Source of the DNA: a virus
Lineage: Duplodnaviria > Heunggongvirae > Uroviricota > Caudoviricetes
Reading direction: 5' to 3' (one strand)
DNA length: 34,665 nucleotides
Virus record (IMG/VR): IMGVR_UViG_2698536302_000011
Location: 1-34,665 of that record
Shown: positions 3,891 through 23,343 of the stretch, one piece after another
Position numbering within the stretch: the stretch's first letter is position 1
Layout of the letters: every line of letters starts with the position of its first letter
The notes under the pieces: generated by a model
Databases searched by the model: none
Told to the model about the DNA's origin: nothing
What the model saw: only the letters and a program-made list of their open reading frames with translations
Program-made: the position numbers and the translations under genes

Positions 3891-4013
3891 TTTGTTTTAA
3901 CCTCATGACAGATTTAAGGATGAACAAATCCCTGCCATTGCTGGCATATAAGAATCAAATCTGATGTATTCATTAAGCTGAATGTCGTATTGTGGCAGTT
4001 ATTTTATTACTGC

Positions 4014-4235: not shown

Positions 4236-4801
4236 AATTATCTCCATTTTTACAAATGAACTTTGTTGATGCGGTGCCTGGTGCCTCCAGGTGACGTTAA
4301 CCAGTTAACAATTAACGCCGGATACAGAGAACCCACCCATAACACTGTTTTTGGTTTTAACTGTTCCGCGTGCGCTCAGCCGCATTCACCGCATCACAAA
4401 ACTCACTTTAAAAAGGGCGGCAGACCAGTCACGGAGTAAAACTGATACCGCCAAACGTCACCAGAAAATTGATAACAGAGGGCGTTGCAGCGGGGTTGTC
4501 ACTTAAGCGTATGGTCAACCTGACAACCCGGTGTCCTCAACGGGGAAGGAATAACCCCGCCATACTTACCGCCGCGCCATTTCGCGGAGTGCCACAACCG
4601 GAAGCGCACGGTCGACGAAAATTTAACGACAGGCTATCTATGAACCAGCTACCTCGCCGTGCGCTTTCGCGTTATGGTCTGACTTTTCAGGGAAATATCC
4701 TTTCAGTAAACTGTCAGTGCCGGATGCTCACCCGTGTCCGGCGCACGCACTCCACCTCACCCGTGGAGAACTCCTTAATCACCAACCCTCAGGAGGGTGA
4801 A

Positions 4802-5077
4802 ATGTCGACTGAAAATGATGAAATCATTAACTCCCTGATACGCCAGATTAATAATTTTGATAAAGCATTGCAGCATGCTGCGGCGCGTAGTGATATAACT
4901 CTTTTAGCAATTTCATTTCTTGCATCTGTAATGGATAAAAATGAAGTCGTACGACAGAGTCTTGTTGATTATATCGACTCGCTTCAACCAGGCACTTTCA
5001 ATCATGAGAGCTTCAATCATGAGAAAGAGCATGTTAAATCTGTAATTAATTCTCTTGTTTTGAATCAAAAGAATTAA
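4802..5077 (+). CDS. Hypothetical protein
   Basis: ATG at 4802 with AGGAGG 7 nt upstream; ~91 aa; the upstream part of the track ORF (from 4469) is Arg-rich and looks non-coding. Convergent with and overlapping the 3' end of 5046-5375. Confidence 0.45.
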   Translation: MSTENDEIINSLIRQINNFDKALQHAAARSDITLLAISFLASVMDKNEVVRQSLVDYIDSLQPGTFNHESFNHEKEHVKSVINSLVLNQKN

Positions 5078-5375
5078 TGCTTTTTGTTGCAAGGTAATTT
5101 TCAAGGGGTTCTATTCGAATCCCTTTCTTTTTCATTAACAAGCCAAACCCCTTATCAATGATGTCCATTAGATCCAGGAAGTATTTTTCATGTAAATCCA
5201 GGTTATCAGAGAGCTGCTTCTCTTCGTACAGACCGATAAAGGCACGACGCACGTTACCGGATATAGTATCGATGGTTTCTTTTTCTACGGTACTCAGGTC
5301 AAGAGTCGCCAGTTGGGAACGAACTATATTCGCTGCCATTTCCTGGAATTGCATTGGTAAATCTTTAAATTCCAT
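5046..5375 (-). CDS. Hypothetical early-region protein
   Basis: 109-aa ORF with GAGG upstream of the ATG; leftward orientation consistent with a PL-type early operon; no recognisable domain. Confidence 0.45.
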   Translation of the reverse strand: MEFKDLPMQFQEMAANIVRSQLATLDLSTVEKETIDTISGNVRRAFIGLYEEKQLSDNLDLHEKYFLDLMDIIDKGFGLLMKKKGIRIEPLENYLATKSINSFDSKQEN

Positions 5376-5397
5376 TATTAGCCTCGTTGGTTAGCTA

Positions 5398-5616
5398 TTA
5401 ACGCGGGCATGTAATCATTCTGGCAATGCTTAATGCCGCTGCTTTTTCCAGCCTGGTGATATCCTGCTCCAGAGCGGACAGATTTTCAGCCTGCTTAGCC
5501 TTGGCTTCATTGGCCCATTTCAGATCCTGCGCTGCATTAATTTTCTGGCGCATCCACTCATAAAGTTCATCATCGGTATAGTCTGGCGCGATGATGACGG
5601 GTTCTCGTTTCTGCAT
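5398..5616 (-). CDS. Hypothetical small coiled-coil protein
   Basis: 72-aa ORF in the leftward early operon; charged, helix-rich composition. Confidence 0.4.
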   Translation of the reverse strand: MQKREPVIIAPDYTDDELYEWMRQKINAAQDLKWANEAKAKQAENLSALEQDITRLEKAAALSIARMITCPR

Positions 5617-7366: not shown

Positions 7367-8420
7367 GTGAGTATGGCTAACGCCTGGCTCAGATTATGGC
7401 ATGACATGCCAAATGACCCTAAGTGGCGAACAATTGCCAGGGTGTCAGGGCAGTCAATTGCAACAGTGATGGCAGTGTATATCCACCTCCTGGTGAGCGC
7501 GTCACGAAATGTCACGCGAGGTCACATTGATGTCACGACAGAAGATTTGGCAAGTGCGCTCGACGTGACAGAAGAGGTAATTGATTCAATTTTGCAGACG
7601 ATGCAGGGGCGGGTACTTGATGGTGATTTAATCACTGGATGGGAAAAACGCCAGGTGCTTAAAGAGGACAACGGCAATATTTCGCAAACCGCAAAATCTC
7701 CTGCAGAGCGCAAGAGGGCGCAGCGAGAGAGGGAAAGAAAGCGGGAACAAAATGGCGATTGTCACGGCGCGTCACGAAATGTCACGCACATGTCACGACG
7801 AGTCACGACAGATANAAGAAGATCAAAACACTATGGTCCATGGCGTAAAAAACGCCACGAACCAGGCAGGGGATGTTCAGACCGTCAATCTTGGTCAGCC
7901 AGCAGGCACGACACCGGAAGCCGATTCAGCGTATGCGCTGAAAGCCGATTCGGGCGCTGTGCAGCAGGTGATGACCGCAAGGCCGGAGCAATCACACCAA
8001 CTGCAGCAGCCTGAAGCCGATTCCGCCATTCAGCGGGAAGCCGATCGGGTAGTCCCGGAAAACACCGGGCAGCCTGTGAGACGAGTGGATTATCCGGATG
8101 TGTTCGAACAGGTCTGGCGGGAATACCCGTTGCGTGCTGGGGCAAACCCGAAGAAATCCGCTTTCAGTGCCTGGAAGGCCAGATTACGCGAGGGGGTGTC
8201 ACCAGAGGCCATGCTGGATGGCGTGAGGCGTTACGCAAGATACCTTGCGGCTACCGGGAAAACGGGAACGGAATTTGTTCAGCGAGCGACGACGTTTTTT
8301 GGGCCGGACCGGAATTTTGAAAACCCCTGGTTGCTCCCGGTAAGCGGCACGAACAACCAGCGTTGTGTGAATCATATTTCTGAACCGGATACCGAAATTC
8401 CACCGGGCTTCAGGGGGTAA
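7367..8420 (+). CDS. Replication-initiator-like protein (O-like / YdaU-type) with internal iterons; apparent frameshift at ambiguous base 7815
   Basis: Two overlapping track ORFs (7367-8014 and 7752-8420) in different frames; the frame switch coincides with the N at 7815 right after the second GTCACG cluster; gene sits in the replication position downstream of the cro/CII-like genes. Confidence 0.5.
7497..7544. repeat. Iteron cluster 1: four GTCAC(G/A) repeats at ~10-11 bp spacing
   Basis: gtcacg at ~7501, 7511, 7532 and gtcaca at ~7521; 18-mer cgtcacgaaatgtcacgc shared with cluster 2. Confidence 0.6.
7761..7808. repeat. Iteron cluster 2: five GTCACG repeats at ~10-11 bp spacing
   Basis: gtcacg at ~7761, 7771, 7781, 7792, 7802; followed by the ambiguous base at 7815. 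Confidence 0.6.
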
Positions 8421-10587: not shown

Positions 10588-11502
10588 TTAATCAACTCTT
10601 TGATTGGCTACTCCAAAGTATGCCTTCAATTCATCATCTTTACTATCTTTTGCAAGAGTTAAGGCGCTCCAAATGCTGCCAACTAATGGATACCTACCTC
10701 CAAGTTCAACATCTGTGTAGTAGACTAATTTGTCTGCTACAAGATCGATAGGATGCTGTACACCGGTCTCAATGTCTTGGGTTTCTAGTTTAAGTTTTTC
10801 AACCTCAAAAGTCTCTAGTGTTTCTTTAAAGGCTCTTTTTAGTTGAGAACCTAGATAGCGAGATTCAGGATCTTCAGAACGACTATCCCCACGTAATGTA
10901 AGATTTACTTTGGCAGAATTAGTACCATTTAGAGTGGCTATCAATGCATTGTTGAAGTTATGTTCAACATCCTCATATAGTTGCACATTCTTTGGCCGAG
11001 CGATACCGATTTCTAGAGTTTTGATTCGAACTTCATTACGCATCAACCACTTTAAACTACTGGTCTGAATGATGGGATTAACAGTTGTATTTTGTGAACT
11101 GTTGGAAAGATATTTACTTAATAGCAACCAGCCATAACAGAGTCTGTTTCGTTGAATTATTAAAACTGAGTCTTGGGTATAAAAATGAAAATAAGCTTTT
11201 TCTAATAAGTTTTCATTGATTTCAAGTTTAATTTCTCTTTCTTCACCTCCGGCTACAGCAACATGAGGGAGATTATTGGTTCTGTGTTTTCCTATAACTC
11301 CCCTGAAACCATAGTCGGTTCTTTCCATGAAGCGCATTTCAACTAGTTTATTTCCTATTTTACGTACAGTTTTGTCTCGGCCTTCGCTGTATGACTCAAA
11401 AATTTTTGAAAAAACAGCTTCAGGTGAATTAACTCCTGCATTTGTATCAGTGCTTATAGTGTGACATTGATAAAAATCGAAGAAAAAGCGCTTGCTAGCC
11501 AT
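10588..11502 (-). CDS. Soluble ~300-aa protein of unknown family; candidate RexA-like sensor
   Basis: 304 aa, no TM segment; first gene of a two-gene leftward operon with the four-TM protein; size and order mirror rexA-rexB; no primary-sequence match I can assert. Confidence 0.4.
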   Translation of the reverse strand: MASKRFFFDFYQCHTISTDTNAGVNSPEAVFSKIFESYSEGRDKTVRKIGNKLVEMRFMERTDYGFRGVIGKHRTNNLPHVAVAGGEEREIKLEINENLLEKAYFHFYTQDSVLIIQRNRLCYGWLLLSKYLSNSSQNTTVNPIIQTSSLKWLMRNEVRIKTLEIGIARPKNVQLYEDVEHNFNNALIATLNGTNSAKVNLTLRGDSRSEDPESRYLGSQLKRAFKETLETFEVEKLKLETQDIETGVQHPIDLVADKLVYYTDVELGGRYPLVGSIWSALTLAKDSKDDELKAYFGVANQRVD

Positions 11503-11950
11503 TGCAAAAATTTCCTGTAAAAAATAATTACATACTTAAGATACTACAAAGAATAATGCGTACGCAAAATTTTTTGTTGAGTAGAATATGTTCGCGGGGT
11601 ATTTTTCGTTAAGATATAATTACCATGGTAACTTTTGCGTTGGTAATGCATTATGTGGTGGAGAAAAAGAGAGAGTCTTATCTTTAAATTATCGCCAGCC
11701 TATATGACTATATGAGTAGTATTTAGATGGGAAATTGTTGAGTTATTGAAAGGAACCATAACCTTTATGTAAAATTACTGCGGGTGCTTGAGGTTATCTG
11801 TCTCAGGCATGCCACCAAAAGGCAGATAGAGAAAAGCCCCAGTTAACGTTACGCGTCCTGCAAGACGTTTAACATTAATCTGAGGCTCAATCTATGAACG
11901 GCAAATCTAGGTTAGCCTCTTACGTGCCGAAAGGCAAGGAGAAGCAGGCT

Positions 11951-12106
11951 ATGAAGCAGCAAAAGGCGATGTTAATCGCCCTGATCGTCATCTGTTTAAC
12001 CGTCATAGTGACGGCACTGGTAACGAGGAAAGACCTCTGCGAGGTACGAATCCGAACCGGCCAGACGGAGGTCGCTGTCTTCACAGCTTACGAACCTGAG
12101 GAGTAA
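11951..12106 (+). CDS. hok: Hok/Gef-family type I toxin
   Basis: 51 aa 'MKQQKAMLIALIVICLTVIVTALVTRKDLCEVRIRTGQTEVAVFTAYEPEE' aligns to Hok ('...[25 protein letters not shown]'); the track ORF extends in frame upstream to 11894 (possible mok-like leader). Confidence 0.85.
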   Translation: MKQQKAMLIALIVICLTVIVTALVTRKDLCEVRIRTGQTEVAVFTAYEPEE

Positions 12107-12173
12107 GAGACCAGGTGAGGGAGAAATCCCTCGCCACCTCTGATGAGTCAGGCATCCTCAACGCACCCGCACT

Positions 12174-12201
12174 TAACCCGCTTCGGCGGGTTTTGTTTTT
12201 T
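12174..12201 (+). terminator. Rho-independent terminator after hok
   Basis: CCCGC-TTCG-GCGGG hairpin followed by TTTTGTTTTTT. Confidence 0.6.
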
Positions 12202-12273
12202 CCTGGCATTCTGGTTTACAATTCGCACGCCAGCCTGAACAACTGGCACCTGCTGCGCCAGCAGAGACAACCG

Positions 12274-12546
12274 ATGGCGCACAAAACCAAATTTCACAAT
12301 TCTGATACCGCCCTTGCCATCCGGCATGGGCGGCGTTCACACGCATTTAAAACCGACTGGTACCAACACCCACCATGTACTGAAGAACAGGCCGAATGGC
12401 TAATTCATAACTACCGCAGACGCGGATACGAGATTAAGAAAGCCCTCAGCCTCGATTATCGTCACTGGATAATCTATGTCAGGCTCCCTTATTCCGAACG
12501 CCCACCGCGTCCGTCCCGCACATTCCAGCAACGCATCTGGAGGTAA
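12274..12546 (+). CDS. Hypothetical nin-region protein
   Basis: ~90 aa from the internal ATG downstream of the hok terminator; basic protein; the track ORF begins at 12115 but its upstream portion spans the terminator. Confidence 0.4.
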   Translation: MAHKTKFHNSDTALAIRHGRRSHAFKTDWYQHPPCTEEQAEWLIHNYRRRGYEIKKALSLDYRHWIIYVRLPYSERPPRPSRTFQQRIWR

Positions 12547-12547
12547 C

Positions 12548-13603
12548 GTGCGGGTATTACTTCGACCTGTTCCGGTACCGGAACTTGGGCTGGTGGTGCT
12601 AAAACCGGGCCGTGAATCCATGCAGGTATTTCATAACCCTCGAGTTCTGGTGGAGCCGGAACCGAAAAGCATGCGCGGTCTGCCGTCCGGAGTCGTTCCT
12701 GCTGTTCGCCAGCCGCTGGCGGAGGATAAATCATTACTGCCATTTTTCAGCGATGAGCGGGTGATTCGTGCTGCTGGTGGTGCTGGTGCATTGTCTGACT
12801 GGCTGTTACGCCACGTTAAATCCTGCCAGTGGCCTCATGGTGACTACCATCACAGTGAAACCGTCATACATCGTTACGGTACCGGCGCGATGGTGTTGTG
12901 CTGGCACTGCGACAACCAGCTGCGTAACCAGACTTCCGAATCACTCGGGCAGCTTGCTCACCAAAACCTGTCAGCATGGATGATTGATGTCATCCGCCAC
13001 GCAATGAATGGCACGCAGGAGCGGGAATTATCGCTGGCTGAATTATCCTGGTGGGCAACCATAAATAACGTAGCGGACGCACTACCGGAGACGGTGTTAC
13101 GTCGTTCACTGGGATTACGCGCGGAAAAAATTCGCTCAGTATACCGCGAGAGCGACATCGTGCCGGGAGAGCAGACCGCCACCAGCATGCTGAAGCAGCG
13201 CACAAAAAATATTGCGCTACTGCCTCACGCCCACCAGCAAAACCCGCCACAGGAAAAGACGGTGGTAAGCATTGCCGTTGATCCGGAGTCACCGGCTCAG
13301 TATCTCCAGCGCCAGAAACCACGACGGGAAGAGATGCCTGTATACACGCGTTGGGTAAAAACGCAGAAATGCATGACGTGTGGTAATCAGGCAGATGATC
13401 CGCATCACATCATTGGTCATGGACTGGGAGGGATGGGAACAAAGGCTGATGATTTGTTTGTTATTCCGCTGTGCCGTAAATGCCATAGCGAACTACACGC
13501 CGGGGTAAAAGATTTTGAAGAAAAACACGGCAGCCAGCTGTTGTTGCTGATTCGTTTTTTAATGCACGCGAGAAATTCGGGTGTCCTGAAGTGGAAAGCA
13601 TGA
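12548..13603 (+). CDS. DUF968-like prophage protein (Cys/His-rich C-terminal motif)
   Basis: C-terminal 'CMTCGNQADDPHHIIGHGLGGMGTKADDLFVIPLCRKCHSELHAG'; GTG at 12548 preceded by GGAGG and abutting the upstream stop (track ORF from 12476); located just upstream of rusA. Confidence 0.5.
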   Translation: MRVLLRPVPVPELGLVVLKPGRESMQVFHNPRVLVEPEPKSMRGLPSGVVPAVRQPLAEDKSLLPFFSDERVIRAAGGAGALSDWLLRHVKSCQWPHGDYHHSETVIHRYGTGAMVLCWHCDNQLRNQTSESLGQLAHQNLSAWMIDVIRHAMNGTQERELSLAELSWWATINNVADALPETVLRRSLGLRAEKIRSVYRESDIVPGEQTATSMLKQRTKNIALLPHAHQQNPPQEKTVVSIAVDPESPAQYLQRQKPRREEMPVYTRWVKTQKCMTCGNQADDPHHIIGHGLGGMGTKADDLFVIPLCRKCHSELHAGVKDFEEKHGSQLLLLIRFLMHARNSGVLKWKA

Positions 13604-13969
13604 ATGACTGAACGCATAGAATTTGTTTTGCCTTACCCGCCAACGGTGAACACTTACTGGCGACGTCGTGGCAGCACATATTTTGTATCAAAAGCCGGTG
13701 AGCGTTATCGCCGTGATGTGGCGCTTATTGTTCGCCAGCAGCGGCTGAAATTAAACCTGTCCGGAAGGCTGGCGATAAAGATTATTGCAGAGCCACCGGA
13801 TAAACGTCGTCGTGACCTGGACAATATCCTGAAAGCACCACTGGATGCGCTGACGCATGCCGGACTACTCATAGACGACGAGCAGTTTGATGAAATCAAT
13901 ATTGTGCGCGGTCAGCGCGTTCCTGGGGGGCGGCTGGGCGTGAAGATTTACAAAATTGAGAGTGAGTGA
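13604..13969 (+). CDS. rusA: RusA-family Holliday junction resolvase
   Basis: 121 aa; 'VLPYPPTVNTYWRRRG...', 'PDKRRRDLDNILKAPLDALTHAGLLIDDEQ' match the RusA family. Confidence 0.85.
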   Translation: MTERIEFVLPYPPTVNTYWRRRGSTYFVSKAGERYRRDVALIVRQQRLKLNLSGRLAIKIIAEPPDKRRRDLDNILKAPLDALTHAGLLIDDEQFDEINIVRGQRVPGGRLGVKIYKIESE

Positions 13970-14520
13970 TCGTAAATATGATATACCCGGAAATTACAGG
14001 CAAAAGCGGCGAGCATTTACGTCTAAAAACGCTGGAAGCCGTCTGGATCCAGGGGAAATTACGGATGTGGGGGCGTTGGTCGTATATAGGTGGTGGCAAA
14101 CCAGGAAATATGTTCAATCAGTTGCTGGCATCCAAAAAACTGACAAAAACCGCAATCAATGAAGCCCTGCGTAGAATCAGGGAGTCAGGGATTGATAAAC
14201 CAGAGCTGGAAGCATTCTTGCGAGAGATGATCGCTGGCAGACAGAAGAGCTGGTTGTCTCACTGTACTGATGCAGAGGCGTTACGCATTGATGGGGTGAT
14301 AAGTAAAGCGCTTGCACGTTATCCTGGATTGATTGATATCCTGCGGCAAAGGTACGAAGGGCGGGGGATGAGTAAACGCAAAATGGCTGAATTGTTGAAT
14401 GAGGTGCACCCGGAATGGTGTTTTAGTACATGCGAAAAGCGAATTGCTAATTGGTTAGCTGTTGCTGAATATGCGCTATACATCCCTATGCGAGAATCGT
14501 TTGCTCAAAAAATGTCTTGA
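13966..14520 (+). CDS. Putative late-gene regulator in the Q position (family uncertain)
   Basis: 184 aa directly after rusA; followed by the same terminator + small-ORF + methyltransferase unit that follows the lambda-Q-type fragment in the paralogous copy; no confident motif match. Confidence 0.35.
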   Translation: MIVNMIYPEITGKSGEHLRLKTLEAVWIQGKLRMWGRWSYIGGGKPGNMFNQLLASKKLTKTAINEALRRIRESGIDKPELEAFLREMIAGRQKSWLSHCTDAEALRIDGVISKALARYPGLIDILRQRYEGRGMSKRKMAELLNEVHPEWCFSTCEKRIANWLAVAEYALYIPMRESFAQKMS

Positions 14521-14604
14521 TTTTTTACGCATAAACTGTTTCAATCCAGCTACGCTTCGCAAAGCTATACCGCGAGGCGAATAGCAGACATGGACACCTG
14601 AAAG

Positions 14605-14628
14605 AACCCGCTTTATGCGGGTTTTTTT
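14605..14628 (+). terminator. Rho-independent terminator
   Basis: ACCCGC-TTTAT-GCGGGT hairpin plus T7 run. Confidence 0.6.
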
Positions 14629-14658
14629 GTGCCCGAAAAGCGGTACAGGACGTTAAAT

Positions 14659-15169
14659 GCGCTGGTGGTTGCGAATGCCGGTCTTTCAGCTTGCTGGCTT
14701 TTTCGACAAGAGGTATTGGTATGTCACGTTAACCGGAAAAGGGAAAAAGGCATGCTAAAACAGCAGGATATGACCGAAACCGCCAGAGTGGTGTTTAATG
14801 AATTAAGCATCACCGAACCGGCGACCGTCGGGGAAATTGCGCAGAATACTTACCTTTCACGCGAACGCTGCCAGTTAATACTGACTCAGCTTGTTATGGC
14901 GGGTCTGGCAGATTATCAGTTCGGTTGTTACAGACGCCTTCCGCAGTGAAGGCTTTTTAATTTGTGGTAATGGGCGGCTGGTGGGTGTTAGCGGCACCTG
15001 CCAGCCATCTGCTCATGCGTTGGGGTCACAAGCAAACCTCAGGCCCATCTGCTTTGCGCAAAAGCGGTATGAGCCTATCAGAGAAGTGCTTATTGATCTA
15101 TGATTAATACTGTAAAAATATCCAGTTGTGAGTTAATCAACGCTGATTGCCTGGAGTTTATCCAGACCT
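14659..15169 (+). repeat. Direct repeat unit A (small ORF + 5' end of the methyltransferase gene)
   Basis: Near-identical to 15722-16232 (period ~1063 bp); ends at the ambiguous base 15170; its methyltransferase-start sequence is identical to that at 16297 onward. Confidence 0.7.
14752..14949 (+). CDS. Small winged-helix-like protein (repeat copy 1)
   Basis: 65 aa 'MLKQQDMTETARVVFNELSITEPATVGEIAQNTYLSRERCQLILTQLVMAGLADY...'; near-identical copy at 15814-16011. Confidence 0.45.
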   Translation: MLKQQDMTETARVVFNELSITEPATVGEIAQNTYLSRERCQLILTQLVMAGLADYQFGCYRRLPQ

Positions 15170-15170
15170 N

Positions 15171-15589
15171 TCCAGTATCCGGATGGTAAGCCGCCGGTAT
15201 GGGCAAAGTGTACGAAAGGTGTGTATCCGTCTTACTGGGAAGAATGGAAAAAAGTCAGGGAGGTGGTAAAAGTTGCCTGTCCGGAGTGTGGCGGAAAGGG
15301 TGAGGTTTCCACCGCCTGTAAGGATTGCCGTGGGCGTGGTGTCGCCATTCATCGTGAAGAGTCGGTAAAACGTGGTATGCCTGTTATCAGAGACTGCCAG
15401 CGTTGTGGTGGTCGTGGCTATGAAAGACTACCATCAACGGAGGCATTTAATGCTATATGCGAGGTGACAAACCAGATAACACGCGCGTCATGGGAAAAAA
15501 CAGTTAAGAAATTTTATGATGCGCTGGTGACCCGGTTTGATATTGAAGAAGCATGGGCTGAGCGGCAGTTAAAAAAGGTAACTAGGTAA
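15171..15589 (+). pseudogene. Lambda-Q-type antiterminator, C-terminal part only (5' truncated at the N junction)
   Basis: 'CPECGGKGE...CKDCRGRGVA...CQRCGGRGYERLPSTEAFNAICEVTNQITRASWEKTVKKFYDALV' aligns to the C-terminal half of lambda Q; the reading frame is open back to the N at 15170 where unrelated sequence begins; no N-terminal half is present. Confidence 0.55.
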
Positions 15590-15669
15590 CAAGGTTGATT
15601 TTTCCGGAATCTGTGGTAAATTCGTCATAACGATGGGCGTTTTATGCCTGACGTTAGAAGAGTTTCTAC

Positions 15670-15694
15670 AACCCGCCGCCGAGCGGGTTTTTTA
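15670..15694 (+). terminator. Rho-independent terminator
   Basis: ACCCGCCGCCGAGCGGGT hairpin followed by a T run. Confidence 0.55.
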
Positions 15695-15721
15695 TGACTG
15701 AAATCGCGTCAGTACAGTAAA

Positions 15722-16261
15722 CGCGCTGGTGGCGGTGAATACCTGTCTTTCAGCTTGCTGGCTTTTTCGACAAGAGTTATTGGTGTGTCACGTTAACCGG
15801 AAAAGGAAAAGACATGCTAAAACAGCAGGATATGACAGAAACCGCCAGAGTGGTGTTTAATGAATTAAGCGTTACCGAACCGGCGACAGTCGGGGAGATA
15901 GCGCAGAATACTTACCTTTCACGCGAACGCTGCCAGTTAATACTGACTCAGCTTGTTATGGCGGGTCTGGCAGATTATCAGTTCGGTTGTTACAGACGCC
16001 TTCCGCAGTGAAGGCTTTTTAATTTGTGGTAATGGGCGGCTGGTGGGTGTTAGCGGCACCTGCCAGCCATCTGCTCATGCGTTGGGGTCACAAGCAAACC
16101 TCAGGCCCATCTGCTTTGCGCAAAAGCGGTATGAGCCTATCAGAGAAGTGCTTATTGATCTATGATTAATACTGTAAAAATATCCAGTTGTGAGTTAATC
16201 AACGCCGACTGCCTGGAATTTATCCGGTCGTTACCCGAAAATTCTGTTGACCTGATAGTCA
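15722..16261 (+). repeat. Direct repeat unit B (variant paralogous copy), running into the N gap
   Basis: Same unit as 14659-15169 with scattered substitutions; its methyltransferase 5' end differs at several positions from the copy at 16297. Confidence 0.7.
15814..16011 (+). CDS. Small winged-helix-like protein (repeat copy 2)
   Basis: 65 aa; differs from copy 1 by I->V in 'NELSVTEP'. Confidence 0.4.
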   Translation: MLKQQDMTETARVVFNELSVTEPATVGEIAQNTYLSRERCQLILTQLVMAGLADYQFGCYRRLPQ

Positions 16262-16287
16262 NNNNNNNNNNNNNNNNNNNNNNNNNN
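16262..16287. other. Assembly gap (run of 26 N)
   Basis: Contiguous n characters; the flanks overlap redundantly, both containing the methyltransferase 5' end. Confidence 0.95.
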
Positions 16288-16296
16288 TAATGATCC

Positions 16297-17346
16297 ATGC
16301 TTAATACTGTAAAAATATCCAGTTGTGAGTTAATCAACGCTGATTGCCTGGAGTTTATCCAGACCTTACCGGAAAACTCTGTCGATCTGATAGTCACAGA
16401 CCCGCCATACTTTAAAGTGAAGCCCGAGGGCTGGGATAACCAGTGGGAGGGCGACGATGATTACCTGAAATGGCTGGACCAGTGTCTGGCGCAGTTCTGG
16501 CGGGTACTGAAGCCTGCCGGAAGTCTTTACCTGTTCTGTGGTCATCGCCTGGCATCTGACACCGAAATCATGATGCGTGAGCGCTTTAATGTGCTGAACC
16601 ACATTATCTGGGCGAAGCCGTCCGGACGCTGGAACGGGTGCAATAAGGAAAGTCTGCGGGCGTATTTTCCGGCAACAGAGCGCATTCTGTTTGCAGAACA
16701 TTATCAGGGACCGTATCGCCCGAAAGATGATGGCTATGTGGAGCAGGGGCGCGAGCTAAAACAGCACGTCATGGCCCCGCTGATTTCTTACTTTCGTGAT
16801 GCGCGTAAATCACTGGGAATAACGTCAAAACAGATAGCGGAAGCCACCGGAAAGAAAAACATGGCTTCGCACTGGTTTGGTGCCAGTCAGTGGCAGTTAC
16901 CGAACGAGGGTGATTACAATAAATTGCAGGCGTTGTTTGCGCGTGTTGCGGCAGAAAAACATCAGCGCGGGGAACTGGAAAAGCCACACCACCAGCTGGT
17001 CAGCACATACAGTGAGCTGAACCGGCAGTATACGGAACTGCTGAGTGAATATAAAAATTTGCGGCGGTATTTCGGTGTGACGGCGCAGGTTCCGTACACC
17101 GATGTCTGGACGCATAAACCGGTGCAGTACTATCCAGGGAAACATCCGTGCGAAAAACCGGCAGAAATGCTGCAGCAGATAATCAACGCGAGCAGTCGTC
17201 CGGGAGACCTGGTTGCAGATTTTTTTATGGGTTCAGGTTCAACGGTAAAAGCGGCGATGGCACTGGGGCGTTGTGCGATTGGTGTTGAGCTGGAGACCGG
17301 ACGTTTTGAACAGACAGTCAGGGAAGTTCAGGATTTAATCGTTTGA
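16297..17346 (+). CDS. DNA N6-adenine/N4-cytosine methyltransferase (beta-class; DPPY before FxGxG)
   Basis: 349 aa; motif IV 'DLIVTDPPY' near the N-terminus and motif I 'DFFMGSGST' near the C-terminus. Confidence 0.85.
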   Translation: MLNTVKISSCELINADCLEFIQTLPENSVDLIVTDPPYFKVKPEGWDNQWEGDDDYLKWLDQCLAQFWRVLKPAGSLYLFCGHRLASDTEIMMRERFNVLNHIIWAKPSGRWNGCNKESLRAYFPATERILFAEHYQGPYRPKDDGYVEQGRELKQHVMAPLISYFRDARKSLGITSKQIAEATGKKNMASHWFGASQWQLPNEGDYNKLQALFARVAAEKHQRGELEKPHHQLVSTYSELNRQYTELLSEYKNLRRYFGVTAQVPYTDVWTHKPVQYYPGKHPCEKPAEMLQQIINASSRPGDLVADFFMGSGSTVKAAMALGRCAIGVELETGRFEQTVREVQDLIV

Positions 17347-17395
17347 AACGGATGAGATTGCAGAATTAATTACGCACCATTATTATTCTGCTCCC

Positions 17396-17471
17396 GGCCC
17401 TTTAGCTCAGTGGTGAGAGCGAGCGACTCATAATCGCCAGGTCGCTGGTTCAAATCCAGCAAGGGCCACCA
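17396..17471 (+). tRNA. tRNA with CAU anticodon (Met or lysidine-modified Ile2)
   Basis: Cloverleaf folded by hand: acceptor GGCCCTT/AAGGGCC, D-arm GCTC...GAGC, anticodon loop CTCATAA, T-arm GCTGG-TTCAAAT-CCAGC, encoded CCA. Confidence 0.85.
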
Positions 17472-17478
17472 TCACATA

Positions 17479-17555
17479 CCGCCATTAGCTCATCAGGATA
17501 GAGCGCCAGCCTTCGAAGCTGGTTGCGCGGGGTTCGAGTCCTCGATGGCGGTCCA
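17479..17555 (+). tRNA. tRNA-Arg (anticodon UCG)
   Basis: Acceptor CCGCCAT/ATGGCGG, anticodon loop CTTCGAA, T-loop TTCGAGT, encoded CCA. Confidence 0.85.
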
Positions 17556-17568
17556 TTATCTGTACCCT

Positions 17569-17645
17569 GCGTTGTTAGCTCAGCCGGACAGAGCAATTGC
17601 CTTCTAAGCAATCGGTCACTGGTTCGAATCCAGTACAACGCGCCA
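17569..17645 (+). tRNA. tRNA-Arg (anticodon UCU)
   Basis: Acceptor GCGTTGT/ACAACGC, anticodon loop CTTCTAA, T-loop TTCGAAT, encoded CCA. Confidence 0.85.
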
Positions 17646-17658
17646 CGCTTATTTTTCC

Positions 17659-17683
17659 AGGCTCGCTTCGGCGGGCCTTTTTC
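17659..17683 (+). terminator. Rho-independent terminator after the tRNA cluster
   Basis: AGGCTCGC-TTCG-GCGGGCCT hairpin followed by TTTTT. Confidence 0.55.
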
Positions 17684-18129
17684 ATATCCGCGCCCGTTAT
17701 GAAGCGCCACCGCGTTCTGCTAATGCTGAAGCCCTTCGTCAGCTGACTGATGTTGCAGATACTGATGATACTGTGAATGTGCTGTGTCTGTGTCTGGATA
17801 TCGCTGACCAGGACGGTATCGGTCAGGAAGAAGAAGCGCAACTGAAGAAAATTGCGCAGGCGCTGCAGTTGCCGCTGGAGCAGTACCTGTGAAAAGTGCG
17901 CGCCTTGTGCTGGCTGTCATCCTGTTGTTTCTGGTAGTGATGGTGGATTTCACCGGACGACTGATGTCAGTGCTGGCAGATGGTGTGCTGGTGGCGATGG
18001 CGCTGATCGTGCTCCGGCCTTTACTGCGTAAATCTGAATAACATCACACAAAAGGCATCTGCGGGTGCCTTTGACGGGGTGTTTTTTTACGGGTCGCTGG
18101 TGGCCCTTTTTTTATTTTCAGGAGGAAGT

Positions 18130-18522
18130 ATGTCTGAACCCTTATCCGGTTCCGGCACGGCTGCGGCGCTGGGTGGCGCGACGGTATTCGGGCTGTTTAC
18201 CGGGATGGATTTCGGGATTGTGTTTGGCGCGTTCGCCGGGGCGTTATTTGTGGCAACGATGCCGCAGTCACTTTCAGTCTGGCGCGTGGTGGCGCATTTT
18301 CTGGTGTCGTTTATTGTCGGCGTGCTGGGAGCGCGTGTGCTGTCAGCCTGGATTGCATCAAAAACAGGGTATGACGGTACATCAGCAGATGCGCTTTGCG
18401 CGGTGCTGGTCTCGGTGGTGTCGGTGAAGATTCTCTCGTTCATCCACCAGCAGGATATTGCATCGCTGGTGTCCGGTGTGTTCTCCCGCCTGCGGGGTGG
18501 AGGAGGCGGCAATGTTAAGTAA
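18130..18522 (+). CDS. Putative holin (multi-TM membrane protein)
   Basis: ~130 aa from the ATG at 18130 (GGAGGAAG RBS); several hydrophobic helices; first gene of the lysis-position cassette; C-terminal Gly/Arg-rich tail. Confidence 0.55.
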   Translation: MSEPLSGSGTAAALGGATVFGLFTGMDFGIVFGAFAGALFVATMPQSLSVWRVVAHFLVSFIVGVLGARVLSAWIASKTGYDGTSADALCAVLVSVVSVKILSFIHQQDIASLVSGVFSRLRGGGGGNVK

Positions 18523-18787
18523 CCTTCCCGGATTGCTGAATGTGGCGTTATGCACGGTTATCGTGCTGACGCTCTTTTTTTATCGTCGCCGTGATTCCAG
18601 ACATAAACCGCTGGTGTCATGGCTGGCCTGGCTGCTGATGCTGCTGTATGCCTTTGCGCCCCTCAGCTATCTGTGTGGTCGCCCGTTAGCAACGGGCTGG
18701 CTGGAAGTGTTTTTTAACCTGCTGTTCTGCGTGCTGGTGATACACGCACGCGGGAACGTCACAAAAATCTTTCCATTGTTGAGGTGA
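18512..18787 (+). CDS. Second lysis-cassette membrane protein (holin/antiholin-like, ~3 TM)
   Basis: ~91 aa from the ATG at 18512 preceded by GGAGGAGG; overlaps the upstream gene end; hydrophobic helices 'LLNVALCTVIVLTLFF', 'LVSWLAWLLMLLYAF', 'FFNLLFCVLVI'. Confidence 0.5.
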   Translation: MLSNLPGLLNVALCTVIVLTLFFYRRRDSRHKPLVSWLAWLLMLLYAFAPLSYLCGRPLATGWLEVFFNLLFCVLVIHARGNVTKIFPLLR

Positions 18788-18789
18788 AT

Positions 18790-19167
18790 ATGCCGGGTAA
18801 ATTCAGATTCAGCCGTCGCAGTGAAAAAAATCTGGAGGGTGTCAAACCACAGCTGGTTGCTGTAGTTCGCCGTGCGCTGGAGCTGACGGAGGTTGATTTC
18901 GGTATTACGGAAGGCCTGCGCAGTAAGTATCGCCAGAAACAGCTGGTTGCGGAAGGGAAAAGCCAGACCATGAACAGCCGCCACCTGACCGGTGATGCGG
19001 TGGATGTTGTGGCCTACATCGGCAGCCAGGTGTCATGGGAGTGGCCTCTGTACGAGAAAATCGCACAGGCATTTAAGCAGGCTGCCGCAGAGCTGGGGAT
19101 CGCTATCGAATGGGGCGGGGACTGGAAAACGCTGAAAGACGGACCTCACTTTCAGCTGAAGCGATAA
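18790..19167 (+). CDS. Endolysin, peptidase M15 family (L-alanyl-D-glutamate peptidase-like)
   Basis: 126 aa; 'SRHLTGDAVD' and 'DGPHFQ' match the zinc-binding H-x(6)-D ... H pattern of M15/VanY-type peptidases; ATG at 18790 after GAGGTGA. Confidence 0.65.
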   Translation: MPGKFRFSRRSEKNLEGVKPQLVAVVRRALELTEVDFGITEGLRSKYRQKQLVAEGKSQTMNSRHLTGDAVDVVAYIGSQVSWEWPLYEKIAQAFKQAAAELGIAIEWGGDWKTLKDGPHFQLKR

Positions 19168-19178
19168 GTAAAACAAAA

Positions 19179-19208
19179 CCCCGGCTGGGGGAACAGTCCG
19201 GGGTTTTT
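19179..19208 (+). terminator. Rho-independent terminator after the endolysin
   Basis: CCCCGG...CCGGGG hairpin followed by TTTTT. Confidence 0.6.
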
Positions 19209-19441
19209 AGTTTTCACGTCAAAGGGGAAATTGTGATTAGTGAGTACGGAGAAAATCCTCGTGGGAAAGTATAAAAGATTCTTTTTGAGGTTGTCCATTA
19301 TGAAAGGTATTGAAATGGAAACTCCCGCGAGCCTTGATTTGACAAGGGCTGCGGCCTTTGCAATTCGCCTTGTGGCGGTCGCTGTTCTGATTTGGGCTGT
19401 GCGTTGGTGGTGATATGGCGCGAAAACACTGGACACACAGA

Positions 19442-19597
19442 ATGCCGCGAACGGCGGTGAAACGGGCACTGGTAGCGATACTGGTGCCTTTTTTATTGGT
19501 GGGGTGCGTCAGCCTGGATAAGGCGCGCCAGCTTTTCGATACCGCGTCTCAGGTCTGTGAAATTGTCGACGGTGTTCGGCAGTGTCTGCAGAACTGA
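19442..19597 (+). CDS. Small lipoprotein (possible outer-membrane spanin-like or other small lipoprotein)
   Basis: 'MPRTAVKRALVAILVPFLLVGC' has a signal-peptide n/h region and an LVGC lipobox; mature part ~30 aa with two Cys; preceded by a 37-codon hydrophobic mini-ORF (~19300-19413). Confidence 0.4.
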   Translation: MPRTAVKRALVAILVPFLLVGCVSLDKARQLFDTASQVCEIVDGVRQCLQN

Positions 19598-19768
19598 TCG
19601 CCTGTAAGAGCAGAATATTTTGCTGAAAAATGAAGGGTGCGTCAGCGTCCGGAAAGCATGAAATTCTGTGTTTGTGGCTACTCAATAAAATAAATTCTTT
19701 CTGTCGCCGCGAATACTCAAATGTTGATCAGTGCCCGGTGCGGCGACGGGCTTCGATATCAGGAGACG

Positions 19769-20164
19769 ATGATGGAAAAAACAGAAAACAAACCGATTGT
19801 AATTGGTGCTGATGCTGCTCCGTTTAAGTTTGAGTTGTCTCAACTGGTGGAGATGCGTATCAGTGATGAATGGGGTGAGGTTAAAGCCCGCGCGCAGTAT
19901 GCGGATGGCGAAAACCAGTACTTGATCCACTACAAAGCAGCTGATGGTCGCGCCACGACGGAGTGGTTTGGTGAGTCAATGCTGGAAGCAACAGAAGATG
20001 ATCGTCATCCGGGTTGTCCGGTATTTGCCGGTATGAAATTACCGGAAGGTGCAGTTGAACTGCAGCCGGGTGAGGTGTTCGTAATGACAGACATCATTGA
20101 TGGTAAACCGCAGTATTCGCGTATTGAAATGAATAGTAAGAGTGCTCGCCTGATTCGTGAGTAA
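19769..20164 (+). CDS. Hypothetical protein
   Basis: ~131 aa from 'MMEKTENKPIV...'; AGGAG upstream; no recognised family. Confidence 0.45.
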   Translation: MMEKTENKPIVIGADAAPFKFELSQLVEMRISDEWGEVKARAQYADGENQYLIHYKAADGRATTEWFGESMLEATEDDRHPGCPVFAGMKLPEGAVELQPGEVFVMTDIIDGKPQYSRIEMNSKSARLIRE

Positions 20165-20560
20165 CAGGCATTACAGCAGCCCTTCACTCTAAGGGGTTGC
20201 TGTAATGTGAGAAATAAAAAACCGGTCACAGGGAGCAGCTACACAGAAGCGGCCGGCGAAGACCGCCAATACCACCCATGCATTGATGCAACATACTAAT
20301 GACAATAGCCGCTATTGATGTAAATGCAATGTTATGCATCGACGAAAATAAAAAACCGGCAGGGGAAATCCATTGAAGATTTGCCGGTGGCAAAAGAGGG
20401 CCATGTTTTTAACCTTAGTCGCAGAGTTACGGAGTGCAACTACGAATGCTGCCGGTATATGGCTGAATGGCGTTTCAATGATGTACGTCATCTTATCTGT
20501 AAATGTTAATGACAAACGCTCTCATTTGTGCGGGTCCTTCCGGTGGGGTGGCCTGCCACG

Positions 20561-20572
20561 GGGCGGGAGCGT
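20561..20572. other. cos site (cosN-like cohesive-end sequence)
   Basis: '...gtgcgggtccttccggtg...cacg|GGGCGGGAGCGT|cgcgg...' parallels the lambda right-end / cosN / left-end arrangement ('...ttacg|GGGCGGCGACCT|cgcgggttttcgc...'); ~175 bp upstream of the small terminase gene. Confidence 0.6.
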
Positions 20573-20746
20573 CGCGGAAAAAGGCTAGTTTTTGAAATTT
20601 TATTCGTCATCACCACCACTGTAATAGATTGATATTACAGTGGTTTTATTTTTATGGTGTCGATTTTGATTGTTTTTTGTTCATCACTAACACCGTTTGC
20701 CTAAAGTTGTTCGCGAGATGCATGTTTAAAACATTCTGGAGCGGGT

Positions 20747-21241
20747 ATGGATCGAGAGTTAAAAAATCTGACGCTGAATATCAGTCAACTGGCGGCACTG
20801 TCAGGTGTACATCGCCAGACTGCTGCGGCAAGGCTGCAAAATCTACCCGTTGCAGGGGGGCATGAAAGCAACCTCAAGCTTTATCGGGTGGTTGATATTG
20901 TGTCGGCATTTCTGGCATTGCCACCGCCGGTTGCAGAAGGCGAAATGGACGCGCATGAGCGCAAAGCCTGGTATCAGTCTGAACGTGAGCGTCTTAAGTT
21001 CGAACAGGAAACGGCACAACTCATTCCGGCCAGTGATGTCAGACGGGAGTTTGCCATCTGGGCAAAAGCGGTCGTGCAGGTGCTGGAGACATTACCGGAT
21101 ATTCTGGAACGTGACTGCGGTCTGCAGCCTGCCGCTGTGAGCCGTGTTCAGTCCATTATTGATGATCTGCGCGATCAGATAGCCCTGCGGGTGACTGAAG
21201 CAGGTGCGGATGATGAGGAGGAATTACAGCAGGAGGAGTAA
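20747..21241 (+). CDS. nu1: Terminase small subunit (lambda Nu1-like)
   Basis: 164 aa; N-terminal HTH ('LTLNISQLAALSGVHRQT'); immediately upstream of and 1-nt overlapping the large terminase gene; acidic C-terminus. Confidence 0.75.
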   Translation: MDRELKNLTLNISQLAALSGVHRQTAAARLQNLPVAGGHESNLKLYRVVDIVSAFLALPPPVAEGEMDAHERKAWYQSERERLKFEQETAQLIPASDVRREFAIWAKAVVQVLETLPDILERDCGLQPAAVSRVQSIIDDLRDQIALRVTEAGADDEEELQQEE

Positions 21242-23343
21242 TGCTGAATCAGGAAACCGCAAAGGCAGCACGAACCGATTCAGGTTATATCCTTCGCGCA
21301 CCGAGACGAATGCGGGTTGCTGATGCCGTTGCTCAGTATATGCGGGTGCCCATGGGGGCAGGGAACTCAGTCCCGTGGGATCCGCTGGTGGCACCGTATG
21401 TTATTGAGCCGATGAACTGCCTGGCCTCGCGTGAATACGACGCAGTGATATTTGTTGGCCCGGCACGAACCGGCAAGACTATCGGCCTGATTGACGGCTG
21501 GGTGATTTACAACGTGATTTGCGATCCTGCTGATATGCTGATCATTCAGATGACGGAGGAAAAAGCCCGCGAACACTCCAAAAAACGACTCGCCAGAACG
21601 TTTCGCGTCAGCCCGGAAGTGGTCAGTCGCCTGAGTCCGAACAAAAATGACAACAACGTTTATGACAGAACATTCCTTGCTGGTAACTACCTGAAAATCG
21701 GCTGGCCGTCAGTCAATATCATGTCCTCATCAGATTATAAATGCGTCGCGCTGACGGATTATGACCGTTTTCCGGAAGATATTGATGGCGAGGGGGATGC
21801 TTTCTCTCTTGCCTCAAAACGTACCACCACATTTATGTCCAGCGGTATGACGTTGGTGGAGAGTTCCCCCGGCAGGGATGTGAAGGATGTGAAATGGCGA
21901 CGGACTTCACCGCATGAGGCTCCACCAACCACGGGGATCCTGTCGCTCTATAACCGTGGTGATCGCCGTCGCTGGTACTGGCCCTGTCCACACTGTGGTG
22001 AGTATTTTCAGCCCTGCGGCGATGTGGTTGCTGGTTTCCGTGATATTGCCGATCCCGTGCTGGCAAGTGAGGCGGCTTATATTCAGTGTCCTTCCTGTTC
22101 AGGACGGATTATGCCTGAACAAAAACGTGAGCTGAACGGACGTGGGGTCTGGTTGCGGGATGGTGAATCCATCAATGCGGATGGCAGTCGTTATGGTGAT
22201 CCCCGACGCTCACGTATTGCGTCATTCTGGATGGAGGGTCCGGCAGCTGCTTACCAGACACTCTCGCAACTCGTTTACAAACTGCTTACTGCAGAACAGG
22301 AATACGAGACAACCGGAAGTGAAGAAACACTCAGGGCGGTTATCAATACCGACTGGGGATTACCTTATCTTCCCCGCGCCAGCATGGAGCAACGAAAAAG
22401 TGAACTGCTTGAGCAGCGGGCAGAGCCAGTTCTTTCCCGCAGTGTGCCGGATGGCGTTAATTTCCTTGTGGCGACAGTGGATGTGCAGGCGGGACGTCAT
22501 CGCCGTTTTGTGGTTCAGGTAACGGGCTATGGCAGCCGTGGCGAACGCTGGATTATTGATCGTTACAACATCACGCAGTCATTGCGCGGTGACAGCGACG
22601 GGGAGAGCCAGCGAATTGATCCGGCCAGCTATCCGGAAGACTGGGATGTCCTGCTGACGGATGTTTTTCATAAAAGCTGGCCGCTGGCCTCCAATCCTTC
22701 TCAACAAATGCGACTGATGGCAATGGCGGTGGACTCCGGCGGTGAAGACGGGGTCACTGATAATGCCTATAAATTCTGGCGTCGTTGCCGTCGTGATGGC
22801 CTTGGTAAACGTATTTACCTGTTTAAGGGCGACAGCATCCGGCGCGCAAAACTGATCACCCGTACATTCCCTGATAACACCGGACGAACGGGCCGACGGG
22901 CGCAGGCCGCAGGTGATGTGCCGCTCTGGCTTCTTCAGACGGATGCACTGAAAGACCGGGTGAATAACGCGTTATGGCGTGACTCGCCAGGTCCAGGCTA
23001 TGTGCATTTCCCTGACTGGCTGGGGAGCTGGTTTTACGACGAACTGACGTATGAAGAGCGGAGCAGTGACGGGAAATGGAGTAAGCCGGGTCGCGGTGCC
23101 AACGAAGCTTTTGACCTGATGGTGTATGCCGAGGCTCTGGTCATTCTGCATGGATACGAAAAGATCCGCTGGCCGGATGCACCGGAGTGGGCGAGCCGGG
23201 AAACCTGGCTGGAGTGTGTCCAGGACAGTACTGAACCGTCATCCTCACCGGAACCGGTATCCACGCCTGTTAAAAAACAAAAACGGAAGAAAACAGTAAC
23301 TGACGATGTTAACCCCTGGCTGACTTCCGGAGGATGGTTATGA
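21241..23343 (+). CDS. A: Terminase large subunit (lambda gpA-like)
   Basis: 700 aa; Walker-A-like 'VGPARTGKT'; 'WYWPCPHCGEYFQP'; followed by W-like and portal genes. Confidence 0.9.
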   Translation: MLNQETAKAARTDSGYILRAPRRMRVADAVAQYMRVPMGAGNSVPWDPLVAPYVIEPMNCLASREYDAVIFVGPARTGKTIGLIDGWVIYNVICDPADMLIIQMTEEKAREHSKKRLARTFRVSPEVVSRLSPNKNDNNVYDRTFLAGNYLKIGWPSVNIMSSSDYKCVALTDYDRFPEDIDGEGDAFSLASKRTTTFMSSGMTLVESSPGRDVKDVKWRRTSPHEAPPTTGILSLYNRGDRRRWYWPCPHCGEYFQPCGDVVAGFRDIADPVLASEAAYIQCPSCSGRIMPEQKRELNGRGVWLRDGESINADGSRYGDPRRSRIASFWMEGPAAAYQTLSQLVYKLLTAEQEYETTGSEETLRAVINTDWGLPYLPRASMEQRKSELLEQRAEPVLSRSVPDGVNFLVATVDVQAGRHRRFVVQVTGYGSRGERWIIDRYNITQSLRGDSDGESQRIDPASYPEDWDVLLTDVFHKSWPLASNPSQQMRLMAMAVDSGGEDGVTDNAYKFWRRCRRDGLGKRIYLFKGDSIRRAKLITRTFPDNTGRTGRRAQAAGDVPLWLLQTDALKDRVNNALWRDSPGPGYVHFPDWLGSWFYDELTYEERSSDGKWSKPGRGANEAFDLMVYAEALVILHGYEKIRWPDAPEWASRETWLECVQDSTEPSSSPEPVSTPVKKQKRKKTVTDDVNPWLTSGGWL

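Follow-up and report, generated by a model that had tools for sequence, protein, structure and literature searches.

Apparent tandem of a late-regulation module in a lambdoid prophage scaffold as a very probable artefact of short-read assembly

The tandem arrangement between the putative late antiterminator gene and the methyltransferase gene of the window, the whole 34,665-nt stretch of DNA analysed here, very probably arose during short-read assembly and scaffolding and is not a feature of the genome, the support for this being in silico. The window is taken from scaffold CXBC01000001.1 of GCA_001260315.1, a short-read draft assembly that carries the label Shigella sonnei. The original prediction had read 15170–16287 as a piece of a paralogous prophage spliced in, and this reading stands: the outer flanks overlap, the repair is gap-free, and the junction is seen nowhere else. 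As a refinement, the artefact would also take in the 79 nt of duplicated overlap at 16288–16366. The parts involved are the following.

7815, no strand: second single-N scaffold join, compared with reference locus L004
14637–15169, plus strand: repeat copy 1, taken as genuine, with the 65-aa ORF (14752–14949) and the probable true 5′ end of the methyltransferase gene (15100–15169); repeat families D1–D3
15170, no strand: single N at the scaffold join of left contig and foreign piece; methyltransferase homology ends and mid-Q homology begins exactly here
15171–16261, plus strand: foreign piece, apparently from a Q-lambda-type prophage; contiguous 98.3% match in closed genomes, PF03589, terminator
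16262–16287, no strand: 26-N scaffold gap between foreign piece and right contig; its flanks overlap in homologous coordinates
16288–16366, plus strand: start of the right contig, duplicating 15091–15169 (79 nt, 76 identical); L001 4492–4570 is matched by both flanks
16297–17346, plus strand: N6/N4 DNA methyltransferase gene as written (349 aa, MLNTVK...), PF01555

A unit of about 0.53 kb occurs twice in the window, at 14637–15169 and 15701–16261, the copies being offset by 1062–1064 nt from start to start. Identity is 85% in family D3 (14637–14746 versus 15701–15810) and 98% in family D1 (14745–15044 versus 15807–16106), and the longest exact run is 305 nt (14839–15143 = 15901–16205). The similarity is far above chance. 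The repeat of about 0.5 kb described earlier is thus confirmed, except that each unit starts about 20 nt before the position given, directly after a terminator hairpin. Likewise, the "first ~30 codons" of the methyltransferase said to lie in the unit amount to 70 nt in copy 1 (15100–15169, 23 codons plus 1 nt) and 100 nt in copy 2 (16162–16261). The single N at 15170 and the 26 N at 16262–16287 were placed correctly; the only other N of the window, at 7815, was absent from that account. Relative to L004, the N at 7815 takes the place of three 12-nt units, about 35 nt, of a tandem repeat within the replisome-organizer gene, and so single Ns in this assembly mark joins between contigs. Single Ns as merely ambiguous bases were rejected on this ground and because the N at 15170 parts unrelated sequences.

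Evidence on the join comes from the two outer flanks. The left flank, 13600–15169, which holds copy 1, matches nt 3001–4570 of the DUF1133 reference locus L001, and 16288–17400 matches L001 nt 4492–5604. These coordinates give the two contigs, left and right, an overlap of 79 nt. The left flank is gap-free against L001 and L006 at 99.6–99.8% identity. When the insert and the duplicated overlap are removed together (deletion of 15170–16366), the repaired locus of 2,604 nt aligns with six reference loci with 0 gaps at 99.0–99.6% identity. A longer repaired stretch of 9.3 kb matches all 9,050 nt of L037, which lies in a closed chromosome of 4.94 Mb, with 0 gaps at 99.6% identity. A search for a closed genome of the same or a demonstrably clonal isolate found none, the best references being 99.6–99.8% and not 100% identical.

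The join itself is not encountered in the other genomes searched. Among 5,426 complete E. coli genomes, 0 cover at least 80% of a query spanning the junction (15105–15235), while each half of this query matches at 100% in separate genes. The junction at 15170 has 0 matches in 241 million metagenome records and 0 in the GTDB species representatives. On the other side, the last part of the foreign piece and the first part of the right contig share 109 homologous nt at 88% identity (family D2). With such an overlap, the 26 N cannot represent a stretch of collinear sequence that is missing.

Alternatively, the tandem could be real, if illegitimate recombination between two resident prophages had put the 3′ half of Q, the 65-aa ORF and the methyltransferase start into the 5′ end of the methyltransferase gene, with the Ns as low-quality positions. 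Lambdoid prophages often recombine, and natural mosaics occur in this same region; for instance, L002 joins a Q-lambda-type upstream variant to an A-type methyltransferase start, and several loci carry cargo between Q and the 65-aa ORF. If such an event had occurred, the prophage would have two late-operon entries in series under different control, owing to a truncated Q-lambda-type cassette that brings a promoter/terminator region of its own and a second copy of the 65-aa ORF. Nevertheless, two non-homologous junctions would be required, each falling exactly on an N or a run of N, and the second would have to fit within 26 nt despite the homology shared by its flanks. The overlap of the outer flanks, the absence of the junction from the complete genomes, metagenome contigs and GTDB representatives, and the restriction of the resulting methyltransferase protein to the source contig also speak against recombination, which is considered most improbable.

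Returning to a scaffolding artefact, the origin of the foreign piece can be traced to a type of prophage, if not to an individual one. Its 1,091 nt (15171–16261) give a contiguous 98.3% match to the antitermination protein, hypothetical protein and DNA methyltransferase genes of other prophages. The piece holds the 3′ part of Q (15171–15589), a terminator hairpin (15670–15695), the second copy of the 65-aa ORF (15814–16011) and a B-type methyltransferase start (16162–16261). The Q fragment comprises the C-terminal 139 codons, from codon 135 of homologous genes of 273 codons (L003 3098–3919, with the match from 3501). It has no start codon, and the complete Q gene is not present in this piece of the window. 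The fragment scores 109.4 bits against PF03589 (cut-off 26.7, profile positions 1–87 of 87), the Q-lambda family (PMC9388147), in agreement with the label "lambda-Q-type" given before. The best full-length reference is L003 at 98.3%, and the Q part by itself is 99.2% identical to L005; a source identical at 100% was not found among the reference loci.

The 5′ end of the methyltransferase gene would also reflect the false join. The product as written matches PF01555 with 152.4 bits (cut-off 26.7, profile positions 1–219 of 221). This protein (CSO10423.1/WP_052984746.1) is encoded on 1 contig only, the source. In contrast, the repaired protein, with the start of copy 1 and the body after the gap, is found exactly on 241 contigs, including chromosomes of 4.99 Mb. 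Judged from these comparisons of sequence, the true gene is 15100–15169 joined to 16367–17346 (MINTVK...). The methyltransferase start after the gap had been described as identical to copy 1; this is correct for 16301–16366, but positions 16290, 16296 and 16300 differ from both copies, and for that reason codon 2 reads Leu and not Ile. In the variant table the first 13 nt of the right contig (16288–16300) are the variant typical of Q-lambda-type loci. Since these 13 nt hold three mismatches to copy 1, the overlap model needs contamination of the contig end by reads of the paralogue.

The same 13 nt could be taken to mean that the assembly is indeed at fault but that the other path is true, in which the late region from 16288 belongs to the Q-lambda-type prophage, continuing from the foreign piece, and the DUF1133 contig on the left is misplaced. 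In agreement with this, 17400–34665 matches the late region of strain 203740 at 99.7% identity, and in that strain the region lies downstream of a Q of the Q-lambda type, the 65-aa ORF and the methyltransferase. However, the methyltransferase body after the gap is of the A type, with 99.25% identity to the DUF1133 locus L001 and about 90% to L003 and L002, which are Q-lambda-type loci, and L028 reaches 95.3% over 16288–19000 with mismatches from 16341, inside the methyltransferase gene. The foreign piece and the right contig are 88% identical where they overlap, against 76 of 79 nt for the left and right contigs. Moreover, it is the joining of left to right that yields the exact protein of the 241 contigs and runs without a gap over 9 kb of a closed genome having the DUF1133 locus and the same downstream genes. 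This path is regarded as highly unlikely and was rejected on the identity of the methyltransferase allele. The possibility that the late region (methyltransferase, tRNAs, lysis genes) hides a further chimera was likewise rejected, 16288–21000 being gap-free and 99.6% identical to strain IrN.

The false join may be accounted for by two paralogues whose contig ends look cross-wired. The isolate would carry at least two lambdoid prophages sharing a late-regulation module of antiterminator, promoter/terminator, 65-aa ORF and methyltransferase. They would differ in the antiterminator allele, one having DUF1133 (Q21-like) and the other a Q of the Q-lambda family. Beyond the terminator they would be 85–100% identical, including the exact run of 305 nt. 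The contigs would break within 100 nt of the start of the methyltransferase gene because the paralogues diverge again there after the near-identical stretch. The scaffold runs in the order left contig (to 15169), N, foreign piece, 26 N and right contig (from 16288). The foreign piece may have been a separate contig, or a gap-filling extension by reads of the wrong copy. Matches to the module occur in 3,806 of the 5,426 complete E. coli genomes, at up to 8–9 places per genome. In the closed genome 504838, a DUF1133 locus and a Q of the Q-lambda type are separated by about 470 kb. This genome was rejected as a template for both loci, as its Q locus is without the 65-aa ORF and the methyltransferase, and it illustrates co-occurrence only.

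An origin of the join in a pipeline of Velvet, SSPACE and GapFiller would fit, as a conjecture. The Sanger pipeline paper (Page et al. 2016, PMC5320598) describes SSPACE and GapFiller as greedy tools that "can lead to false joins"; it also reports 4–10 misassemblies per test genome and lists 299 S. sonnei assemblies. The present case resembles repeat-induced false joins in scaffolded short-read assemblies in that a small paralogous piece lies between Ns, the flanking contig ends overlap, and the breaks fall where near-identical, multi-copy prophage sequence diverges. Unlike a simple misplacement of a contig, it shows 13 cross-wired nt where the right contig begins.

The practical consequences are minor and concern the quality of the data. 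The public draft GCA_001260315.1 would hold a false insertion, which gives rise to a duplicate call of the 65-aa gene and an orphan Q fragment, and the protein record CSO10423.1/WP_052984746.1 would exist only through the chimeric contig end. Where drafts of this kind enter surveys of pangenomes, prophage types or Q alleles, a single prophage could be credited with a second antiterminator that is spurious. Biologically the case is unimportant, the underlying locus being a common and well-known lambdoid late-regulation module of known arrangement, with nothing biologically new.

As the alignments show it, the real locus consists of 13600–15169 followed by 16367 onward, with RusA, DUF1133, terminator, 65-aa ORF, methyltransferase, three tRNAs, and lysis and structural genes. 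Its remaining features in the window are these.

13604–13969, plus strand: RusA family Holliday-junction resolvase gene on the left contig; Pfam PF05866, E 4.9e-16; RusA in matching RefSeq loci
13966–14520, plus strand: DUF1133 gene, Q21-family-like putative late antiterminator; PF06576, PF06530, phrog_753
14600–14632, plus strand: intrinsic-terminator-like hairpin with U run, 3′ of DUF1133; RNA fold −22.2 kcal/mol, z −6.6
17396–17645, plus strand: three phage tRNA genes (CAU, Ile in RefSeq; Arg-TCG; Arg-TCT); ARAGORN, Rfam

The proposed true order of 184-aa gene, terminator, small ORF and methyltransferase is borne out by relatives of the locus. At 10 of the 10 places where the identical 180-aa DUF1133 protein is encoded, the order is DUF1133, 65-aa ORF, methyltransferase, and the DUF1133 and methyltransferase starts are 1122 nt apart, which equals the spacing from 13978 to 15100 in the window. 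The gene measures 184 aa from a GTG, and gene callers start it at the ATG at 13978, giving 180 aa. It lies between rusA and the late-operon terminator, and its product scores 342 bits against PF06576 and, more weakly, 28.3 bits against PF06530, the Q21 family (Pfam cut-off 26), and matches phrog_753, "anti-termination protein Q-like". DUF1133 is a candidate Q21-like antiterminator, the function being putative. The hairpin at 14600–14632 occupies the position of tR′ and by this position would be the Q-dependent terminator. A scan of 14300–16400 for a consensus sigma-70 promoter found none, and the naming of these sites as PR′ and tR′ follows position only.

In the lambdoid late switch, a Q gene is followed by PR′, a Q-binding/pause site, tR′ and the late operon, and three unrelated Q families occupy the one position (PMC9388147). 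The real locus is similar, having a gene in the Q position directly after rusA, a strong terminator hairpin and then late genes, and the foreign piece has a Q-lambda-family allele and a terminator of its own. The two modules become homologous directly downstream of their terminators, in line with Q/qut cassettes that can be exchanged. DUF1133 differs in forming a Pfam family of its own, with a putative antitermination activity. The Q, small ORF, methyltransferase and tRNA (Ile/Arg/Arg) region of E. coli lambdoid prophages shows the same gene order with near-identical sequences. The region is presumably that of Stx-type and related prophages. In the window, holin and endolysin genes lie directly 3′ of the tRNAs and toxin genes are absent there; the tRNA layout after the methyltransferase is the same in L003, L028 and L029.

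The 65-aa ORF had been called a winged-helix protein, and the label is tentative, with support at the level of the fold only; the score against the TrmB profile, 18.4 bits, is below the Pfam cut-off of 25.6. The best AlphaFold2 model has a pLDDT of 91.5 and an H-H-H-E-E order (three helices and a beta hairpin), the other four models reaching 49–71. The top Foldseek matches of this model are wHTH domains (MarR/OhrR/IclR) with TM scores of 0.68–0.81 and E values of only about 2e-3. Relatives of the ORF are named TrmB family or DprA-like winged helix at NCBI.

Direct reading of 13900-17200, with its ORFs listed, gives the following arrangement:

13604-13969, + strand, RusA
13966-14520, + strand, 184-aa ORF (DUF1133)
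about 14600-14632, + strand, hairpin and U run
14752-14949, + strand, 65-aa ORF, copy 1
15100-15169, + strand, first 70 nt of the methyltransferase gene
15170, single N
15171-15589, + strand, start-less ORF fragment (Q-lambda family)
15670-15695, + strand, second hairpin and U run
15814-16011, + strand, 65-aa ORF, copy 2
16162-16261, + strand, methyltransferase start, 100 nt
16262-16287, 26 N
16297-17346, + strand, full methyltransferase ORF, 349 aa
17396-17645, + strand, three tRNAs

The repeat units and N gaps originally noticed at 14659-16380 are confirmed. Identity is 85% between 14637-14746 and 15701-15810 and 98% between 14745-15044 and 15807-16106, and a 305-nt run (14839-15143 = 15901-16205) is shared by both copies without mismatch. 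Apart from the Ns at 15170 and 16262-16287, the window holds an N only at 7815. The methyltransferase start is present a third time, in part, 3′ of the 26-N gap (repeat family D2). Each copy also has a terminator-like hairpin (GCCTTCCGCAGTGAAGGC, then TTTTTAATTT) across the stop codon of its 65-aa ORF, at 14936-14953 and 15998-16015, ahead of the methyltransferase.

The 184-aa ORF is identified as DUF1133 in a profile search (342 bits); it also matches PF06530, weakly but over threshold, and PHROG families named 'anti-termination protein Q-like'. The start-less fragment matches PF03589 across the full profile (109 bits) and corresponds to codons 135-273 of homologues 273 codons long. PMC9388147 assigns PF06530 to the Q21 family and PF03589 to the Q-lambda family, and places Q genes from different families at equivalent genome positions; the label 'lambda-Q-type' given earlier to the fragment is therefore correct. 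The 349-aa ORF is an N6/N4 DNA methyltransferase (PF01555). The 65-aa ORF belongs to phrog_331, a PHROG without assigned function, and its relatives are named 'TrmB family' or 'DprA-like winged helix' at NCBI. AlphaFold predicts three helices with a beta hairpin for it (best model at pLDDT 91.5, the remaining four at 49-71), a fold that superposes on MarR/OhrR/IclR wHTH domains with TM 0.7-0.8 at an E of only about 2e-3, so that a winged helix is plausible from the predicted fold.

The genome collection's index lists the 65-aa ORF in some 32,000 blocks. It is the first gene 3′ of the terminator behind all three Q families, and the stretch that separates it from Q serves as a cargo site. Among reference loci from other genomes, this stretch holds TfpB (L008), an AAA_15 ATPase (L013), GmrSD_N with HEPN (L015), a Ser/Thr kinase with a PP2C phosphatase (L029, L031), or three unannotated genes on the reverse strand (L035).

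Among 5,426 complete E. coli genomes searched with the 3.8-kb region, the best matches are loci only 2,604 nt long, in the order RusA, DUF1133, hypothetical protein, DNA methyltransferase and tRNA. In direct BLAST against the DUF1133-type locus L001, window 13600-15169 equals L001 3001-4570 and window 16288-17400 equals L001 4492-5604; the outer flanks thus share 79 nt of L001. The intervening 15171-16261 occurs as a single contiguous piece, at 98.3%, in other prophages, where its counterparts are annotated antitermination protein, hypothetical protein and DNA methyltransferase. A 131-nt query across the junction at 15170 was covered to at least 80% in none of the 5,426 genomes; its halves match at 100% in separate genes, those of the methyltransferase and the antitermination protein. 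The junction pattern with 0-3 free bases was likewise absent from 241 million metagenome records and from the GTDB species representatives. A repaired stretch of 9.3 kb, 11000-15169 joined to 16367-21500, matches the entire 9,050 nt of reference locus L037, from a closed chromosome, at 99.6% and without gaps; six references align with a shorter version of the repair, also gap-free. The scaffold is thus a left contig, an N, a paralogous piece, 26 N and a right contig, of which the outer two belong together. The flank overlap, the genomes searched and the gap-free repair support the original reading that 15170-16287 was inserted by the assembler, and the tandem feature is very probably an artefact in a public draft genome. 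A real tandem in a recombinant prophage is extremely unlikely, since it needs two illegitimate junctions, both exactly beneath Ns, the second confined to 26 nt although its flanks share 109 homologous nt.

The proteins lead to the same locus. The methyltransferase as written (MLNTVK...; CSO10423.1 / WP_052984746.1), a record assigned to Shigella sonnei, was found by exact look-up on one contig, CXBC01000001.1 (GCA_001260315.1; 97,826 nt), which carries the same Ns and in which the window occupies 63162-97826. The start of copy 1 with the post-gap body (MINTVK...) gives a protein found exactly on 241 contigs of up to 4.99 Mb. Leu2 of the deposited protein probably stems from a chimeric contig end, and MINTVK... 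is the natural protein. Closed chromosomes are among those that encode the repaired methyltransferase, in the layout of the source but with DUF1133 1197 nt nearer. The proposed true order, 184-aa gene, small ORF, methyltransferase, was seen in 10/10 places encoding the identical DUF1133 protein, each with 1122 nt from the DUF1133 start codon to that of the methyltransferase, equal to 13978 to 15100 in the window. The true locus is an ordinary lambdoid late-regulation region, already known.

Alternatively, the inserted piece could run on into the right contig, with the DUF1133 side misplaced. The late region is indeed 99.7% identical to one behind a Q-lambda-type Q in strain 203740. However, the post-gap methyltransferase body is of the allele that goes with DUF1133, with 99.25% identity to L001 against about 90% to L003 and L002, both of the Q-lambda type; mismatches to L028 start at 16341, within the methyltransferase, and joining the left and right contigs reproduces known proteins and loci, which makes this path very improbable. 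The right contig was also considered as an additional chimera; this was rejected, as 16288-21000 aligns to strain IrN gap-free at 99.6%.

For the artefact, a mechanism can be proposed. Many genomes carry several copies of the module, at up to 8-9 places. All three contig ends (15169, 16261, 16288) lie within -9 to +100 of the methyltransferase start, just past the 305-nt identical run, where the paralogues diverge. The isolate would carry one DUF1133-type and one Q-lambda-type prophage; the segment common to both would exceed short-read resolution, and a scaffolder or gap filler may have put the small piece into the wrong prophage. According to PMC5320598, the Sanger pipeline consists of Velvet + SSPACE + GapFiller, and greedy tools of the SSPACE/GapFiller type 'can lead to false joins'; the paper also gives a list of public S. 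sonnei assemblies, 299 in all. That this pipeline produced the join in GCA_001260315.1 is conjecture.

Directly 3′ of the gap, the 13 nt at 16288-16300, TAATGATCCATGC, which straddle the methyltransferase start, differ from copy 1 at three positions and are the variant of most Q-lambda-type reference loci, while the inserted piece bears the DUF1133-type variant at the equivalent site (16153-16165). Within the 305-nt run, this piece has 2 mismatches to L001 vs 10 to L003, its own best reference. Of the 21 reference loci containing the anchor sequence, none combines ATGATT at the start with CGCCGAC in the body as this piece does. This looks like paralogues cross-wired around a short common core with chimeric contig ends, as might happen if a collapsed node was written twice or a contig end extended with wrong-copy reads. 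The artefact verdict is unchanged by the swap.

A single N in this assembly marks a join that was left unresolved rather than an ambiguous base, because the N at 7815 sits exactly where about 35 nt are absent relative to L004, namely three 12-nt units (ACAGATAAAGAT) belonging to a tandem repeat in the phage replisome-organizer gene. The site (context 7700-7910) adjoins a run of GTCACG-type short repeats, and ORF calls are broken there (7367-8014 and 7752-8420).

The tRNAs at 17396-17645, 3′ of the methyltransferase, are CAU, Arg-TCG and Arg-TCT; the first is Met per ARAGORN and its homologue tRNA-Ile in RefSeq. Three are also present in L003, L028 and L029, and two, spaced differently, in the DUF1133-type L001 and L006; since number and spacing differ, the late region is mosaic relative to the latter two. 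Rfam matches are DicF sRNA (4415-4466, - strand, 74 bits) and sok antitoxin RNA (11782-11956, + strand, 109 bits), the latter part of a hok/sok-type module 5′ of a DUF968 gene, as in reference prophages (hokD). The window end at 34665 is the end of scaffold CXBC01000001.1, within the tail-gene region, and is presumably a further repeat-induced break among lambdoid prophages.
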